This document shows, piece after piece, positions 7,450 through 41,046 of a DNA stretch of 64,000 nucleotides; the stretch's first letter is position 1, and the number at the start of each line of letters is the position of its first letter. The stretch comes from Patellaria atrata CBS 101060. Lineage: Eukaryota. The stretch covers positions 812,623 to 876,622 of the forward strand of contig MU006092.1 of assembly GCA_010093705.1 (NCBI GenBank). Direction: 5' to 3'. The translations under genes were made by a program, and so were the position numbers. The notes under the pieces are model-generated. The model did no database searches. It was not told where the DNA came from and worked only from the letters and a program-made list of their open reading frames with translations.

Positions 7450-9420
7450 CAAACAGAACGTTCGAGTTCAAAGTCTGGACACTTGGCTTTCATCATCAAT
7501 ATATGACTCCCACAGCTAGTTTCTTGTGCTATTTCGCATGCTGTTCTGGGTGTAATTAGGCATATGACTCTCTCACAACCCTAGTTTGAACTACTTCGAT
7601 TGAAAGATGCTGCACTTTTACTGCTAACCCTATCCGCACGTCCCTAGAGTAGATTATCCCTCACACAAGTCCTTACCGGCAGATACACGGTCGAGTTCGA
7701 CCAACAGTGACAGAAACGGTAAGGTAGATTTCGGTTCCACTTTCCAGTCGCCCCTCATCGTCAGACCTAGTTCTAGTCCAGCCTAGAAATTTCTTTGATA
7801 TTACACCTTCTTGTATTCTATGAGTAAAGGGTACCTTCATGTGGAAAGGTATTGGATCTAACAGTAGGTTCTACGCTTTTTTTTATTTTCCTTTAGGTAC
7901 CCAGAGCCTTGGCATTGTCATGGCTTAGGAACAAAGTACCTTACCACGTGCGATATCTCCCGATGACGAATCCAGTCATACCACCTCATTTAGGGGTCCT
8001 CGATGCGATCCGTGGTTTCGTTAGCGATAGTGTACTTGGGTTTATACTTAACGTCAAACTCCCACGTTGGAATTGGAGTCTCGGAGCGTACCGTGGCGAG
8101 AGAATGCCGAACGCGGAGGTGGTTTGCCGGGTATGTAGTCTTCGATGTAAGTTCACCCTTTAGGAACTCCTGTCATGCACTAGGGGATGTATTCCTAACG
8201 ACGGGGTCGTGTCAATTCCTAGTTCGCTGCGCTGGATGCAGGAACCTTTCCCGCGAACCATATTACGCTTCCCATTTCGATTGGTAACTAACAAGTACGA
8301 GTACATGTAAAGTTTTTGATTGTGGGAGAGGGCCGAGATGCGGGTTCGGAATAGGAACGTGCATCCTTATCATATCGATATGATGAGTTGTTATCGGCTG
8401 AGGAGTGAGGACAGATGGTCTGGTTTGGTTGAGGTGCAAGGCCCGTCAGCTTGTCGGTGCTGTTCTCTTGCAGATCTACCGTCTGATCAGCCCAGCCACC
8501 CGTTGTTCTTCTCAAATGTCGATGTTATGGGGGTGTGGATGGTTTTCCTTTGAGATGGATTTCAAACAAATAGCTTTGTTCAACTGTTTACATTGCTCTC
8601 AACCTTCCATACTGTACCCTCCTTTGTGCTATATGCTTCTGAGTAATCCCCTCCAAAAAAAAAAACAAAACAGAAAAAAAACAGAAAAAAAAATACAAAA
8701 AAAATACAAAAAAAAACACACTGAAAAAGGAGCGAGTACACGAGGTTCAACAAAATGTTGAAACTAGAATTCCCGAACCCTCGTTCATCCCCGTTGACCG
8801 CCAGATTCTAAGATTTCTAGCGAGAGGCCAGTCCCGGACAAGCGTCTCGGCAGCGAGGGAGAGCTTCGGTCCCATTGGCAGCCTTTTTAGAGACAAGGGG
8901 CACGAGCAGGTAGGGATCCGATTGCCCTGCATATGCGGCATCCGGAGAGAATTGGGGAACCTCTCACTGGTCATCTCTCACGGTTCACACCTGGTCTCTC
9001 CTTCCCAGAGCTGATACATGGCGAGCCTTATCTTCCCTTGTTTCGTTGGTGCGAACACGGCCAACCGGCACGCACGAGGTGCACGATTTGGGGTGATGGA
9101 GGTACAGTATGCGTCTAACGATGCTAATAATGGCACCATCCCTCGAGGGCTGGACCGTTCGAGGGGACAAAGAAGGTGACGCCTTTCGGGTTGTTCGATG
9201 GCTGGGAGGGTATAAATACCCTGCTGGTACCGCACCACATGGCGGACAAAGAGAGGCTCAATTCATTTGGTGACCACGTTGCTTTGTTGAAGAAAGGTTG
9301 ATTCGATTTTGGAGGGTTTAAAAGAACTGTGGGTGGAGGAATTAGGATAGTACTGTACATATAGTAGGGAAGGCTATTCGTTCGCTAAGTTAGGCTGAGG
9401 AGATTGGGGTTTTTGATCGT
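7450..9420 (+). ncRNA. TER: Candidate telomerase RNA (TER); ends approximate
   Basis: No credible ORF; template CTAACCCTA 7624-7632; pseudoknot-like pairing TTCAAC 8579-8584 with CAAAA-T-GTTGAA 8751-8762; CR4/5-like three-way junction 9166-9288; Sm-like GATTTTGG 9305-9312; GTAAGT 9419-9424. Confidence 0.72.
8655..8716 (+). repeat. A-rich low-complexity tract inside the TER candidate
   Basis: A-runs interrupted by C/G/T, flanked by complementary arms CTCCTTT 8619-8625 / AAAGGAG 8726-8732. Confidence 0.9.
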
Positions 9421-9862: not shown

Positions 9863-9996
9863 GTATTTGTTTTATCGCTAAGTACGCCTTGTCTTCCTTT
9901 GAATCCGGGGAGAACACTTTTGCTGACAGCGGTAGTGGATTGTTGAATTTCTGAATAATAATTTTTCCTTTTTTTTTCCTTTTTTTTTTCTTTTTT

Positions 9997-10096
9997 NNNN
10001 NNNNNNNNNNNNNNNNNNNNNNNNNNNNNNNNNNNNNNNNNNNNNNNNNNNNNNNNNNNNNNNNNNNNNNNNNNNNNNNNNNNNNNNNNNNNNNNN
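9997..10096. other. Assembly gap (100 N) after a T-rich run
   Basis: Run of N bases. Confidence 1.
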
Positions 10097-24310: not shown

Positions 24311-25429
24311 TCAGTAATCATCATCAAAGTAAATGTCTCTAACTTCGATGCCGTTGCGCCTCTGATCCCGGACCCAAAAGGAGTGGTATGTACTGTAATC
24401 GCGACGTCCAGTAAGACCGAGTTCCGAGGCGACGTTAACGTATCCATCTGCATTGACTTTGCCGGTTTTCGCGATCTGTTTTAATGACTCCTCATCCCCA
24501 ACCCAAGGCGTACGACAGAACGGGCAAGTGACACCTCCATCTATCCCCTTCTTTGCGGATGCCCACTGTTCGAAACAACCCTTGTGAATATTGTTTCCAC
24601 ATGCTCCCTTGCAATAAACTATCTCTTCTTTGTCTGGCTGAAACTCTTCGCAGCAGATTGGACAATCATCTTCGAGCGGTTTGCGTTTGCCATCGTCGGT
24701 TTGGGATTCGGGACTCGGGATAGGTGGTGCCCGAGAGAAAATGTCGCGTAGTTCAGACTTGAGAAGGGCGAGCTGATATTGAAGAGGCTCTGGTACTTTT
24801 AATACACGAACCATAACCTGAGGGAATTCGTCAATGGGGCTCTCAATTCATGAAGGCCTTCTCACGTACGTATGCGTGATGTTTGCACATATTCCCCTTG
24901 ATCGCATGCGGGCAAGTACATGTAGGAGTTTGTTTGATATGGACAGTATATATATTTCCGGTAGTCCCAGCGATATCAACAAGTTCCTCGGGACATTCCT
25001 CCGTTCCTTTTCGAGTTCGATCGATAACGAACATCCTGATATGTATTATTAGCATTATTGGAATTGGAAAATTGAATGTAAGTGTGCTATACTTCTGTGT
25101 AAGTGCACGCGCTTTTACTTGCAAAAAGGATTGTGGTGCTCTCATCCGATGGCTATCTCTCGAGCATCAGTTTACGTCACTGTCCAATGAAACGAACCCC
25201 AGTTGATAACATACACTCTCATGCGCTTTTCTTCATCATTTTTGGGTTGACTCTTTCTCTTCTTAGTGGGTGAACTAGTAGGAGCACCACCACAATCGTC
25301 TGCTAAGTCAATCGCATTCTTGCGACTTGAGCCATCACTAGCTCGCTTCCTTTTAGACGAACTGGGCTGGGAAGAGGGCCAAGATCGACTGGACTCGGCT
25401 GAGTTCGCTTCGTACTCTGGAATAGCCAT
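24311..25429 (-). CDS. SWIM zinc-finger / RING-finger protein
   Basis: SWIM GTTGNIYTV...CTCP...CKH and RING CPIC...C...CGNNIHKGCF..W...CPFCR; 3 introns. Confidence 0.9.
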
Positions 25430-27827: not shown

Positions 27828-28619
27828 AAAACTTAGGCACACTGTGAATGGTACAATTATGTATCTCCATTTCTGGAATGAGTTTCAATGGGGAGAATTG
27901 CATTCATGGTGAAAGCTATCTTAAAGTCGTCATAGGATGGCTGTTTGTAATGGGATCTTAACCCGTGTTCCTTGGTAGAAAACCCAAACCTTGTCCAAAA
28001 AAAAATATAAAAAATAAAAACGATGCGTTGCTTCTATAATCTCCTTCTCGTTTCCGAATTTCTTCAGTATAATTACATTTATAGTTTTAAACAATCTCTG
28101 ACTCGACGATACACGTCACTAACGTGTACAACTCAAGATTCAAATGGACAAGATCGAGTATATACCCAGGTCTACGCAACAAAAAGCATAATGATTAAAC
28201 AGCTAACTTCATAGTCGGAACCAACTAAGAGAACCCTATGTTGCGCTCTTCCGTATATCCAAGATATCAAGGCTAATGTTCCCATCTCGTACTGTGCGCT
28301 CCGCCTAGATCCTTCCCTCGACAGTCCTCTCGCACATAAGAGAGTAAGAGACCACGGTCTTTATTCAAGTCTCCCGTCTGCGGTAAATATCGACGACCGG
28401 TGTCCCAGTCAGCGCTTGACTCCTGACCGATGCTACATAGCAGTAAAGATCAACCCCCGTTTCCGAGGAAACCGAGCACCCTTCACCGTACCTGCAGGAA
28501 ACCCTAAAAATACTTCCCCTCCACCGCACATCCCACCCACGAATATAAAACCCGCCTCGCCTCCCTCCAACCCGTACGTTCCACACCATATTTGATTCCC
28601 CCTTTCCCAATTCCCAACA

Positions 28620-29555
28620 ATGGCAACCGCCCTATACGGCCTCCCGACCCTCCTAGCCCAAGACATATTCCATCCCCTCCCCGTAGACCCAGTCGCAAAC
28701 ATTCTCTCCCACCCTTCCTTCCTCCCCCTCCCCGGCGCCCTCAACTTCCGCGACATAGCCCACGCCGCGCATCCCCACCCCAAACCCAACCTCATCTACT
28801 GTGCCGGCGCCCTGACGAACCTCACCGACGACGGCAAAAGACACCTCACCGACCCTGGCGTCACGCGCGTGTACGATCTATGTAGCAAGCCGAAGCGGGC
28901 GCACGTGCCGGCGATCGAGATCGCGGGGGTGAGGACGGTGTAGGTGGAAGACGAGAGCAGGCCGCGAGTTGAGTTCGAAGCGTATGCGGAGGAAGGGGGT
29001 AGAGCGGCGTATGTGAGGTTGTACATGGGGATTTTGGAGACGCATAGGGGGGTTTTCGGGGCGGTGTTGAGGGGGTTTTTGGAGGAGGATGGGGGATTGG
29101 TGTTTTGTTGTACAGGTATGGAGATTTGTGGTTTTGGGATAGGGTGTGGTTTAAGCCGGTTGGGAATGGATGGACTGGATGAGGAAATGTAGACTGATAT
29201 TTGTGGGTTTGTATAGCTGGGAAAGGCCGCACTGGCGTCCTCGCTGCTGTGGTCCTTGGTATCGTCGGCGCTCCGAGGTCGGTTATCGCCGCCGACTATG
29301 TACTCACCCGCATCGGGACGGAACCGGCCCGTGAAGTACTGCTCGCGTTCCTCCTCGCGCATAACCCAGGGTTGGGTAAAGAGAGTCGTGGGTTCCGCAA
29401 CTTCTGTCAGACGAGTGAAGAAGTCATGGAGTTTGTTTCTTGATGCGGTGGATGAGAAGTATGGAGGGATAGAGGGATATACGAGAGAGGTGTTGGGATT
29501 TACTGAGGAGAAGTTGGGGAGGATCAAGGAGAGGTTGAGGGTGGAAGAGGTTTAA
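28620..29555 (+). pseudogene. Tyrosine phosphatase (Y_phosphatase3/PtpB-like) pseudogene
   Basis: NFRD motif; spliced P-loop FCCTAGKGRTG (intron 29116-29216); IAADYVLT and KYGGIEGY motifs; in-frame TAG 28941-28943 and frameshift at about 29432. Confidence 0.82.
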
Positions 29556-29863
29556 GAGGATGAAGGAGATATGCTTACGACTGGAAGAGGATTACTGTGG
29601 TATTGCACAGTCAGTTTCGTAGTTAGAAATGGCCTCTGTGCTGACTGAATAGACAAAAGAAAGAGTTAAGGAGATCATAGTTAAAATCCTGCTGTGACAT
29701 GTACAACAAACCTACAGCAACATCGAAGACAATAATGACAAAGTAAGGAGTACTTCCCGGCTTTTCTCACCATTAACCCCTATGCCATCCATCACGTGCT
29801 TAATATCCCGCTCCAAAATTCACTCAAACCGTCCGCCCAATCCAGTTTGGAACCCTCTTACCT

Positions 29864-29871
29864 TATAAATA
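29864..29871 (+). promoter_or_regulatory. TATA element about 30 nt upstream of the Pol III-type unit
   Basis: TATAAATA. Confidence 0.5.
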
Positions 29872-29895
29872 ATCTTGGCAGAGTTAACTTCCAAC

Positions 29896-30063
29896 TAACT
29901 AGTAGCAGAGCGGTCAGGCAGTCTGACTACGGTCCCCCTTCGATCGAAACGTCGTCGGTTCGAATCCCTCCGGGCGGGTTTAACGGTAAACCTCAGGTCA
30001 ATGGAGCAGCGGCAGTAAAAACCCGTCCGGGGGTTCAAGGAGTCCTAAGGGGCTAATTGTTTT
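29896..30063 (+). ncRNA. Pol III-type RNA: degenerate tRNA-Arg(ACG) head plus long hairpin with SRP helix-8-like motif
   Basis: A box TAGCAGAGCGG 29903-29913, GTCTGACTACGG 29921-29932, B box GGTTCGAATCC 29957-29967, 12-bp stem 29970-29981 / 30019-30030, followed by oligo-T. Confidence 0.65.
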
Positions 30064-30094
30064 GACTTTTCTATTTTTTCTTTTTTTTTTTTTT
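30060..30094 (+). terminator. Oligo-T Pol III terminator
   Basis: T4, T4, T6 and T14 runs directly after the hairpin. Confidence 0.6.
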
Positions 30095-30339
30095 CAGTAA
30101 TCTTTTTCAAAATTGTTATAAGCTCTGAAGCTAGAGATCCTCTAAGCTTGGTATTTTTCCTCTTTCTTCTTCCATTAAACTTTTGTAGCCTCAGCGAGGT
30201 GTCCAGCTCTGATTAAGTTTGAACTTTCTCTTTCTTCAACCTTAAATTTAGGTGTTAGATATCTACAATAGGCTTGAAAGAGCCTCGACCTCCTCTCTCA
30301 CTCACTTTTAGTAGGCCATAACCATTTCATCACACTACT

Positions 30340-31993
30340 TCACTCCGTCACCCGCTCAGTCTGTCCAGCATCTGCACTCTCTCCATCCTGAATATCCGCC
30401 GCAACCTTCAGCGCCCTCCGTCTCGCATCCACATACATCATAAATTCCTGATATGTCCTCGGCATAACCCTGACATCCCTCTCCACGTTAAAGGTATAGT
30501 TGAACTGACCCGTCGGCTTCGTCTCCCCATGTTCCACATCCCGCACCTTACTATCCACCCTCACCTGCACCCTCGTGTACCGCTTCCCCTCCTTCTCAAG
30601 ATCACTCGTCCGCCTCCCCTCTTTATTCTCAGAGTCGGCGGTTTTTTCACCTTCGGCAGCGACAAGGGGAGGATCGGTGTACACGACGTGTGCACTTAGA
30701 TACAGTACGCTACCAACCGGCACAGGGTTCTGAAACGTGCTGGGATCCAAACTCACAAACGTCGGCCGCGCATGCGCGAAGCTCGCCGCACAAAGAAACG
30801 CCAGCTCGAACGTCTGCTTCAGTAAAAAGCCACCGAAGATCATAAAGTGGTGTCGATTTCTATACTGGGGTTGCATGATCGCCGCCGTGCTCACCTTAGT
30901 GGTATCCATGTATACGACGTTGGAAGGCTTGCGCAGCGGGTCATTTGGGTCGTGGTATTGCAGCTCCCGCAGCCACATTGAGTGGATCAAGTCTGACTCG
31001 AGGTCGTTGGGCGTGTGCTTTAGGAGTGAGATTTTGCTGAGTTCTTTGCGAGCGGCGGAGTTACGTTCGCCGCTTGCAAACATGCGTTTTTCTTCTTCGG
31101 TTTCGGCGAGGACCGGGCTGATGGGGACGGGTCTGGGGGGAAGTCAGCTTTATTCTTCGAAGGGACGTGGGAGGTAGACTTCTTGGTCCCAGGGTCTAGA
31201 GAGACCATGGTGCATGCGCAGGTGATGAGAATATCTTCTTTCTTCACCTTCTCGTCCTTTTTCGGCGCTCTAGCGACTTGTAGAGATATCTCCATACTAC
31301 TTCTACCGGTTGCGTAGGTGACTTGGCCGCTGAGTTCCAGGTCACATATCTCCGTGAGGGGATGATTGATCGTGATCCTATCGAAAGCCGCTGTAACCGT
31401 TGTAACCGCCTACGCGCGTCAGAAATTGACGATCGGAATCACTTTATAAAAAGCCTACATCGCCAGTATGCTTGTACGCAATAACCCCCGAGAGTGCGTC
31501 CAGGTCCATGAATATCGTCCCTAGCCTTATGTCCCCCGACGAATTTGTATAAGTATCCAACAACCACGGATCCTGCCCTAGGGGAATGATCTATTTACTA
31601 CATATCAGTCAGCTCTCCCATTACGCTTTTCCTTCTGCCCCATTGCCTCCCGACTTTCCACTAAAAGCCCCAGTTCACACCACTTACAACGCTGTGATAA
31701 CTATCGCTCATCCTCTTCGCACTCAAATCCCTCTCCTCTGGCTTCCCCACCTCCGATTTCCCCGACGCTTCTGTCGGATCCTCACCCTGTTCTTGCTTTT
31801 TCCTCAACGCCTCGATCCACGGAGTCTGCACTCTTGCCTCAGTCAACTCTCTGAAAACTCCATCCGTGCGGCAGATCGTGGTCGTCTGGTAGGATTGTGT
31901 TATGCATCGCGGGAGGTTGTGTGGGCGGCGTAGCAAGGGATGGGAGATGAGGCGAAGGATGCGGAGGCGGGCGGACTTCAGGGGTAAAGCCAT
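30340..31993 (-). CDS. Mitochondrial double hot-dog acyl-CoA thioesterase (ACOT9-like)
   Basis: Presequence; MSDSY; RLGTIFMDLDALSG; YATGRSSMEI; RNRHHFMIFGGFLLKQTFELAF; introns. Confidence 0.9.
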
Positions 31994-32578: not shown

Positions 32579-35534
<2,956 letters not shown>

Positions 35535-39454: not shown

Positions 39455-41046
39455 TCATTCGCAGACACTCCAAGAGATCAGTAGAATAGAAATGAACAGT
39501 AAAGAAATCGAGCTGTGAATACCTTAGTGGGGAAAATAACAACAGCAAGCAGATCACCGGTGTAGGCACAAGGCGGAGCTCGACATCTCAACCCCGTCTC
39601 GCACACACAATTCCCATCCCCACCTTCGGGCTTCCTGTAGTAGAAAGGCGGCACATGTGTTGTCCACGCTATCGGATGCACGTCTGAAGCCATCATGATA
39701 GAAGTTACCTGGATGGTGCAAATAACGTCCGCGGCACGCTTGAGGAGCTGGCCACGCAGGGAATTTCGCCGATTTTCCATGGTCAGCGGGAGATCGTCTG
39801 GAGATGACTCGGAACGACATGGATAACACAAGTCTACTAATTACCTGTATACATGCCATAACGCTTGTTGTATCATCATGTTCGTTATGAATTTCTTTAT
39901 CGCAAAATGGAAATAAGATGCACGGAAATAAGTTCTCAGCAAAGTTCAGTTTGACATTGAGGTTGTCAAAGTTGAGCAGGCGAGCTGTCATTCTGTCTAA
40001 GTATTAGTTAGCAAAATGTCACGATCAGCCAATCATATCGCTCCAAAATATACTTGCTAGCCCCCTTAAGGTACTTTATCTTCTCCTTCTAAAGGAGCTT
40101 CTCTACTCTGGAATCGCAAGTGCATGATAAAAGTCTGGGAAAGGGGTGGTTTTATAAAGGATGATAGAGGTATAGACTGCTGTGCTTCACTTCTATCTGT
40201 ACTTCATCTGTGTGTAGTATTAGTTGGCCGTCTGATAGATCACGATAGTTGGAACTGTCGACTCAGCATACTCTTGTGCAAACGTATTTCCCCATATCAT
40301 CGCACTGCTGGTCGATAATCACCTCCTCTGTCATAATCAGTATTTCTTGGTTTGTAACCCTTGCTCAATTTCCACTGTACAGCGAATGTCGAATCCAAGA
40401 AAATACAAGATCTCCACAATCTGTACAGTACACTCATTTGTACTGTACAGCTACAAGTTTTCGGTACGGTTTCGCCTTCCCATACAGCAGTGTCGGACAC
40501 GGCTTAGAGATGAGCGTACAGTATGCGAGGAATTCCACGACGGCGGAAGGGATAATATGCATGAACAAAACTGGTGATTTTGCTGTTATACATTATGCAT
40601 CTCTCAGCACGCGGTAGAGTTGTACTTCTCTTAGAATATGTATAGTAAGTGTACAGCGACTGAAGGGTGCCAAACCTGATAAATAGAAATGAATAGAATC
40701 GTGCTGTATAATGGCTTCGGGTAGTTGTACTGTACAGTAGGCTGGGGTACGACTACTCAGCGAGAAAAGGTATAATGGCTTTTTGGTTGGACTGAACTCG
40801 AGCAACAGTGTCGTAGTTGAAACCTTTGACTATTAGAATAATAATTTCCGCGGATAACGCGATCGGAAATCATGGCTCAAGATTTCCCTTTTTGATTCCG
40901 TCCTTAACTCGATGCTGCGGTCAACTCGACCCTGCATATCGGTTGGAAATGATACTAAAAGAAACGGTTTTGTGTTAGATTCTCCGTAAAGAACATCTTC
41001 TTTTCTACAGCTTTTGCGATATGGTTCGATGCTAATCGGGGCCGAC

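Follow-up and report, generated by a model that had tools for sequence, protein, structure and literature searches.

The window, that is, the whole stretch of 64,000 nucleotides analysed here, contains a short element in a gap between two convergent genes: a Y_phosphatase3 gene on the plus strand ends at 29555 and a gene on the minus strand ends at 30340. Inside or beside the Y_phosphatase3 gene, proline-rich frames overlap on both strands at 28433-29295; these are probably low-complexity or intron sequence, and not genes. On the minus strand, a long open frame at 33604-35004 encodes three WW domains (Pfam E-value of 6.1e-37), and the frames at about 32.6-33.7 kb look, from their translations read by eye, like an Rsp5-type HECT ubiquitin ligase split by introns. 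The WW-domain frame and the gene layout would fit a filamentous fungus. Two adjacent minus-strand frames at 24311-25166 show, again by eye, Cys/His patterns like those of a SWIM-type and a RING-type zinc finger. An assembly gap of 100 N occupies 9997-10096, with T/A-rich low-complexity sequence before it (about 8655-8718 and 9956-9996).

The element itself is short (about 219 bp, the limit for a SINE being about 600 bp), and the stop-to-stop frame at 29739-30056 matches no Pfam family. It has the following parts:

29864-29872, no strand assigned: TATA-like string, read in the sequence, overlapping the left direct repeat.
29868..29876, no strand assigned: left copy of a candidate target-site duplication, AATAATCTT, from a direct-repeat search.
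29877..30095, plus strand: probable whole copy of a SINE-type repeat (leader, decayed tRNA-Arg-like head, hairpin body and T-rich tail), about 219 bp, delimited by the direct repeats and by a step in depth.
29877..29895, plus strand: 5' leader (GGCAG ... CAACTAAC), common to other copies by by-eye comparison.
29896..29932, plus strand: tRNA-Arg(ACG)-like 5' half, from a by-eye ungapped comparison with mouse tRNA-Arg(ACG) and the A-box match.
29903-29913, plus strand: A box, a consensus match, at tRNA position 8.
29921-29932, plus strand: anticodon-arm 12-mer GTCTGACTACGG, read in the sequence.
29957..29967, plus strand: B box GGTTCGAATCC, a perfect consensus match.
29962..30036, plus strand: body hairpin of about 75 nt, with a core stem at 29970-81/30019-30 that extends outward, from the predicted fold and the depth profile.
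29994..30009, plus strand: apex string CAGGTCAATGGAGCAG with CAGG and AGCAG motifs, one exact match in the window, weakly aligned to an SRP model.
30057..30095, plus strand: T-rich tail with runs of T4, T4, T6 and T14, the runs spanning 30060 to 30094.
30096..30104, no strand assigned: right copy of the candidate target-site duplication, AGTAATCTT, 8/9 identical to 29868-29876.

The TATA-like string, both boxes, the 12-mer, the 12-bp stem, the apex string and the T runs had all been recognised in the initial annotation, and each lies exactly where it had been placed. Since the TATA-like string overlaps the left direct repeat, it belongs to the flank or target site, and not to the repeat family. 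The runs in the T-rich tail are likely Pol III stop sites, and the length of the tail probably varies between copies.

The spacing of the two promoter boxes is very unlikely to be fortuitous by the simulations made here. With consensus strings for both boxes, a search of the two strands of the window found one A box and B box lying 25-55 nt apart, while 2000 first-order Markov simulations predict 0.0015; for the B box alone, the same simulations give 0.13 per window. The 12-mer between the boxes matches, at 12/12 positions, the corresponding stretch of mouse tRNA-Arg(ACG) in the sequence given by PMC7757669, in agreement with the initial annotation, which had named it as an anticodon-arm stretch typical of eukaryotic tRNA-Arg(ACG). 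In the register of this 12-mer, 29896 corresponds to tRNA position 1 and the A box falls at position 8, as in real tRNAs. When the whole head is compared by eye and without gaps to the mouse tRNA as printed there, 22/37 positions are identical, including all 12/12 of the anticodon arm, while the B box lies 10 nt farther from the anticodon loop than it does in the mouse molecule.

A functional tRNA gene, which would need a cloverleaf whose acceptor, anticodon and T stems pair, is ruled out by three results: ARAGORN finds 0 tRNA genes in the window, Rfam gives 0 matches at E<=10 on 29885-29980, and the predicted fold of the head (29877-29975) is no better than that of shuffled sequences (z +1.14). 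This bears out the earlier view that the head is not a working tRNA. The head is read as a decayed derivative of tRNA-Arg(ACG) that would have kept its promoter boxes and lost its cloverleaf.

The body of the element folds much better than the head. The hairpin at 29962-30040 has a predicted energy of -32.6 kcal/mol and a z-score of -2.98, with 1/200 shuffles folding as well, and its core stem (29970-81/30019-30) comprises 12 bp including one G-U pair. It is this G-U pair, which breaks the 8-base seed, that caused the window-wide inverted-repeat scan to miss the hairpin. The sole 100% complementary pair in that scan is a perfect 12-bp inverted repeat with a 6-nt spacer at 40421-40450. The initial annotation had described the 3' part as a longer rod, of which the 12-bp stem and the hairpin stand, while the outer part is doubtful: the pairs CCCCUU/AAGGGG and GAA.CCC/GGG.UUC occur in the minimum-energy fold but are absent from the centroid, and the fold stands out neither over 125 nt (z -1.62) nor over 181 nt (z -1.09). 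A scan for bacterial-type promoters and terminators, which is not relevant to a eukaryote, flagged only a small stem at 30041-30054.

Information on copy number comes from the depth of contigs in two runs, X1 and X2, which belong to one sample of one study, probably of DNA, and thus count as a single line of evidence. Contigs were aligned to 28500-31500 at a likeness of at least 90%, and pieces below 90% were left out. The summed contig depth in the flanks is 320.7/313.8 in X1 and 360.4/364.3 in X2, whereas the bin 29914-30014 reaches 9817.7 and 11366.4, respectively, which is 30.6x and 31.5x the flank. The element thus belongs to a family of about 30 copies. The aligned pieces number 41 in X1 and 73 in X2, and fall into the identity classes 99+/95-99/90-95 as 7/19/15 and 23/32/18, respectively; details are available for 16 of the 114 pieces.

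In X1, parts of the element occur on at least four long contigs, of 6505, 4781, 17541 and 12278 bp, where they show 2-6 differences from the window copy and 0-2 gaps; all four contigs are at single-copy depth (289.9-328.5) and have flanks of their own that are unlike the window. The exact 97-mer of the window at 29907-30003 is likewise at single-copy depth (314), so the window copy has no identical twin. Within the window, a blastn search with 29885-30100 returns only the element itself and T-rich low-complexity matches. A joint across the element, as an empty site would give, was not seen in the one sample.

The depth is not even along the element. From about 3x at 29935-43 it rises to about 9x at 29964, and it is lower again over 30022-30064; the implied depth over 29964-30014, obtained by the authors' own arithmetic from the bin and site depths, averages about 55-60x. 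Given these differences, the hairpin is the most abundant or the best-kept part of the family. Among pieces of at least 90% likeness, the depth of the hairpin (29964-30014) is roughly 6 to 20 times that of the tRNA-like head (29935-29943). The hairpin may also circulate on another element or with other heads.

Small insertions separate the copies from one another at 29939, 29943, 29950 and 29964, and substitutions occur over 29935-43. One copy, found in both runs, has lost 11 nt of the hairpin (29983-29993) and carries C29994T, C30007T and a C in place of T30016. The deletion and the first two substitutions break the CAGG and AGCAG motifs in that copy. All three substitutions are C/T changes at CpA/TpA, and, as far as three substitutions in one copy can indicate, they would fit the pattern left by repeat-induced point mutation.

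The boundaries of the family are drawn from loose ends of 30 letters, compared by eye. Two upstream loose ends of other copies carry CAACTAAC, and in one of them the likeness starts at GGCAG (29877), preceded by unrelated sequence. At the other side, the likeness of one copy (a loose end behind 30048) extends over TTGTTTTG and a T6-C farther on, and is lost after that. The 9-bp direct repeat, 8/9 identical, directly adjoins the element, before 29877 and behind the final T run. By the authors' estimate, about 0.6 repeats of this quality would be expected by chance somewhere in such flanks, and it is only the position at both ends of the element that makes this one a candidate target-site duplication.

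Taken together, the roughly 30 copies that are 90-99% alike in differing flanks, the internal Pol III promoter and the candidate 9-bp target-site duplication suggest that 29877-30095 is probably one copy of a dispersed and moderately old family of tRNA-derived SINEs in a filamentous fungus. Several points speak against this: the tail is T-rich and not A-rich, a partner LINE is not known, the direct repeat is imperfect, the depth is uneven, neither ARAGORN nor Rfam recognises the head as a tRNA, and the copy number comes from a single sample of one study. If the element is a SINE, Pol III would start about 20-25 nt upstream of the A box and terminate within the T runs, which corresponds to a transcript of about 190-220 nt. 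A reverse transcriptase encoded by a LINE would then copy this RNA into new A/T-rich sites and leave a short target-site duplication, and the conserved hairpin beside the tail would most likely be the element that the LINE enzyme recognises.

The uneven depth could also be explained if the high-copy part were the 3' end of a larger mobile element, such as a LINE or an LTR retrotransposon, with the hairpin common to it and to a few tRNA-headed derivatives. The window copy would then be a SINE-like chimera, or a fragment that happens to lie beside a tRNA pseudogene. The drop from about 55-60x over 29964-30014 (in a bin with a mean of about 30x) to about 9x at 29964 and about 3x at 29935-43 is what such an origin would produce. 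However, at least three other copies have a recognisable head or leader, with loose ends before 29903, 29905 and 29947, and a lower depth of the head can equally stem from divergence, pieces below 90% having been left out. Furthermore, pure 5' truncation does not produce the lower depth over 30022-30064. The origin of the high-copy part from a larger element is thus unlikely, and so is the corresponding view of the window copy as a chimera or a fragment.

It is also conceivable that the copies are functional, non-mobile genes from which Pol III makes a structured small RNA of about 200 nt, and that they are maintained in large number as 5S rRNA or tRNA genes are; the product might be a milRNA-type precursor. 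The intact A and B boxes, the stability of the hairpin and its standing as the best-kept part, and the T runs on every end seen would all suit such genes. Against this, the copies differ by up to 10%, with indels inside the hairpin that include the loss of 11 nt at the apex, the ends carry a candidate target-site duplication, and no Rfam family matches. A family of non-mobile genes is therefore a rather improbable source of the copies.

The initial annotation had offered a more unusual reading, in which the body derives from or mimics helix 8 of the host SRP RNA and binds Srp54, either as a decoy or minimal SRP RNA or as part of a tRNA/7SL chimeric SINE. Some observations are in its favour. 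In the alignment to Bacteria_small_SRP, UCAGG and GGAGCAG fall on the two strands that the model conserves best, AAC stands before them, and synthesis by Pol III would be in line with that of SRP RNA. However, when scored, the likeness does not exceed chance. Across the whole window, every Rfam family stays below its gathering score, so that a full match to a described family, which the initial annotation would have taken as a refutation, is absent. At relaxed thresholds, the only SRP match is that of Bacteria_small_SRP at 29964-30039, with 14.4 bits against a gathering score of 40 and E-values of 6.5 on 601 nt and 1.6 on 146 nt. Models of unrelated microRNAs score higher on the same hairpin (mir-362 with 15.4 bits and mir-H5 with 15.0 bits), which indicates that the SRP score reflects a generic hairpin. 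Eukaryotic SRP models give no match at E<=10 on the stretch, which leaves the element without the other SRP domains of eukaryotes (helix 5, helix 6 and the Alu domain), and none of these models does better than the bacterial one.

The structure of the apex points the same way. The alignment to Bacteria_small_SRP deletes the tetraloop columns as well as the helix that separates the two internal loops, on both of its strands. According to the available part of PMC4605306, the apical loop of helix 8 has a conserved adenosine at the fourth position, and alterations of helix 8 were not found in Ascomycota; in the element, only AAU stands between C29999 and G30003, so that such an apical loop is missing. 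In SRP RNA, a symmetric loop with A-C and G-G/A pairs is closed by a helix on each side. The letters of this loop, AGG and AGCA, are present in the element, but the distal closing helix would be 1 bp long and the proximal one is deleted in the alignment. In the predicted fold, the CAGG and AGCAG motifs fall inside a terminal loop of 9 nt, and both motifs are lost in the one copy described above. The letters of the apex thus appear to be a chance likeness to SRP helix 8, and not a working SRP54 site, and the proposal of a minimal or decoy SRP54-binding RNA is not supported.

Of the proposed tRNA/7SL chimera, the SINE half is upheld by the copies, the promoter and the candidate duplication, while the 7SL half is not, given a score so far below threshold. 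The initial annotation had itself held that dispersed, decaying copies with target-site duplications would mark an ordinary SINE, and dispersed, decaying copies with a candidate duplication are what was found. A 7SL-derived SINE of the Alu/B1 type was considered separately and rejected: no SRP model matches outside the helix 8-like apex. As described in the accessible portion of PMC13023118, all known 7SL SINEs are without the central part of 7SL; a SINE derived from helix 8 would thus be unprecedented, and two short motifs are insufficient to establish one. A capture of the hairpin body from the host's own SRP RNA, namely from helix 8 of its S domain, is highly improbable, and it is just as improbable that the body derives from or mimics this helix and binds Srp54. 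If such a capture had nevertheless happened, the element would be without precedent both as a SINE from central 7SL and as a 7SL-related SINE in a non-animal host, and some copies might still titrate Srp54.

The practical consequence of the SINE interpretation lies mainly in annotation: repeat masking is appropriate for this locus, which should be labelled neither a tRNA pseudogene nor a gene for an SRP-like RNA. The number of fungal SINEs described so far is small, and this family, with its roughly 30 copies, tRNA-Arg head, conserved hairpin and T-rich tail, would increase it by one. Such a family would also offer a handle on the LINE that moves it and on the recognition of a U-tailed Pol III transcript. 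The two short SRP-like motifs in the hairpin are no evidence of SRP ancestry.

Scans of sequence collections outside the window returned only chance matches. A metagenome scan with the apex 21-mer gave one locus (L001), a chance match in an apparent coding stretch with only 22 bases alike. A scan of prokaryote genomes for the B box and apex pattern gave L002-L004, which are chance matches beside bacterial tRNA-like sequence, and a scan of viral contigs gave 0 matches. A literature search by sequence with the apex 16-mer found 0 papers, and a search of the literature on fungal SINEs named no such family among the papers listed; Repbase and Dfam lie outside this comparison, so the novelty of the family is unproven. 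The portion of PMC2467506 that was available, a study of conserved structures in Aspergillus, contains nothing on such an element.

Among known SINEs, p-SINE1 of rice is a plant SINE with a tRNA-type head and a pyrimidine-rich tail in place of poly(A). It resembles the element in the type of its head and in its tail, and no relation in sequence is claimed.

SRP RNA helix 8 (Rfam clan CL00003), as presented in the accessible part of PMC4605306, has AGG and AGCA on its 5' and 3' strands, respectively, close to the apex, and so has the element. In contrast to SRP RNA, the element is multi-copy; it lacks a GNAR-type tetraloop, the helix that should lie between the internal loops, and every other SRP domain. 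The 7SL SINEs (Alu, B1 and Urop) are transcribed by Pol III, as the element is predicted to be, and they are related to SRP RNA. According to the same portion of PMC13023118, they are built from the ends of 7SL with about 183 central nucleotides lost, and occur in a few animal groups only. The element resembles 7SL only in this central helix 8, and at a score without significance, which sets the element apart from Alu, B1 and Urop.

AfuSINE2 of Aspergillus fumigatus is tRNA-derived, and one AfuSINE family stems from tRNA-Arg, as stated in the part of PMC5063351 that was available. From the same source, AfuSINE2 shares with the element its fungal host, internal Pol III boxes and an extension unrelated to tRNA, and the head of the element is probably tRNA-derived as well; AfuSINE elements measure 140-493 bp and have target-site duplications of 4-14 bp, ranges into which the length of the window element and its candidate duplication also fit. 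Their copy number is low (about five), compared to about 30 for the window element, and AfuSINE2-1a ends in ACT repeats like those of its LINE, whereas the tail of the window element is T-rich (PMC5063351). The B-box 11-mer and the apex 16-mer have 0 and 0 occurrences, respectively, in the main text of PMC5063351, so the element is not an AfuSINE sequence printed there. That paper also introduces Mg-SINE of Magnaporthe, a filamentous ascomycete in which this tRNA-derived SINE is present in about 100 copies. At 472 bp, as described there, it is longer than the window element (about 219 bp).
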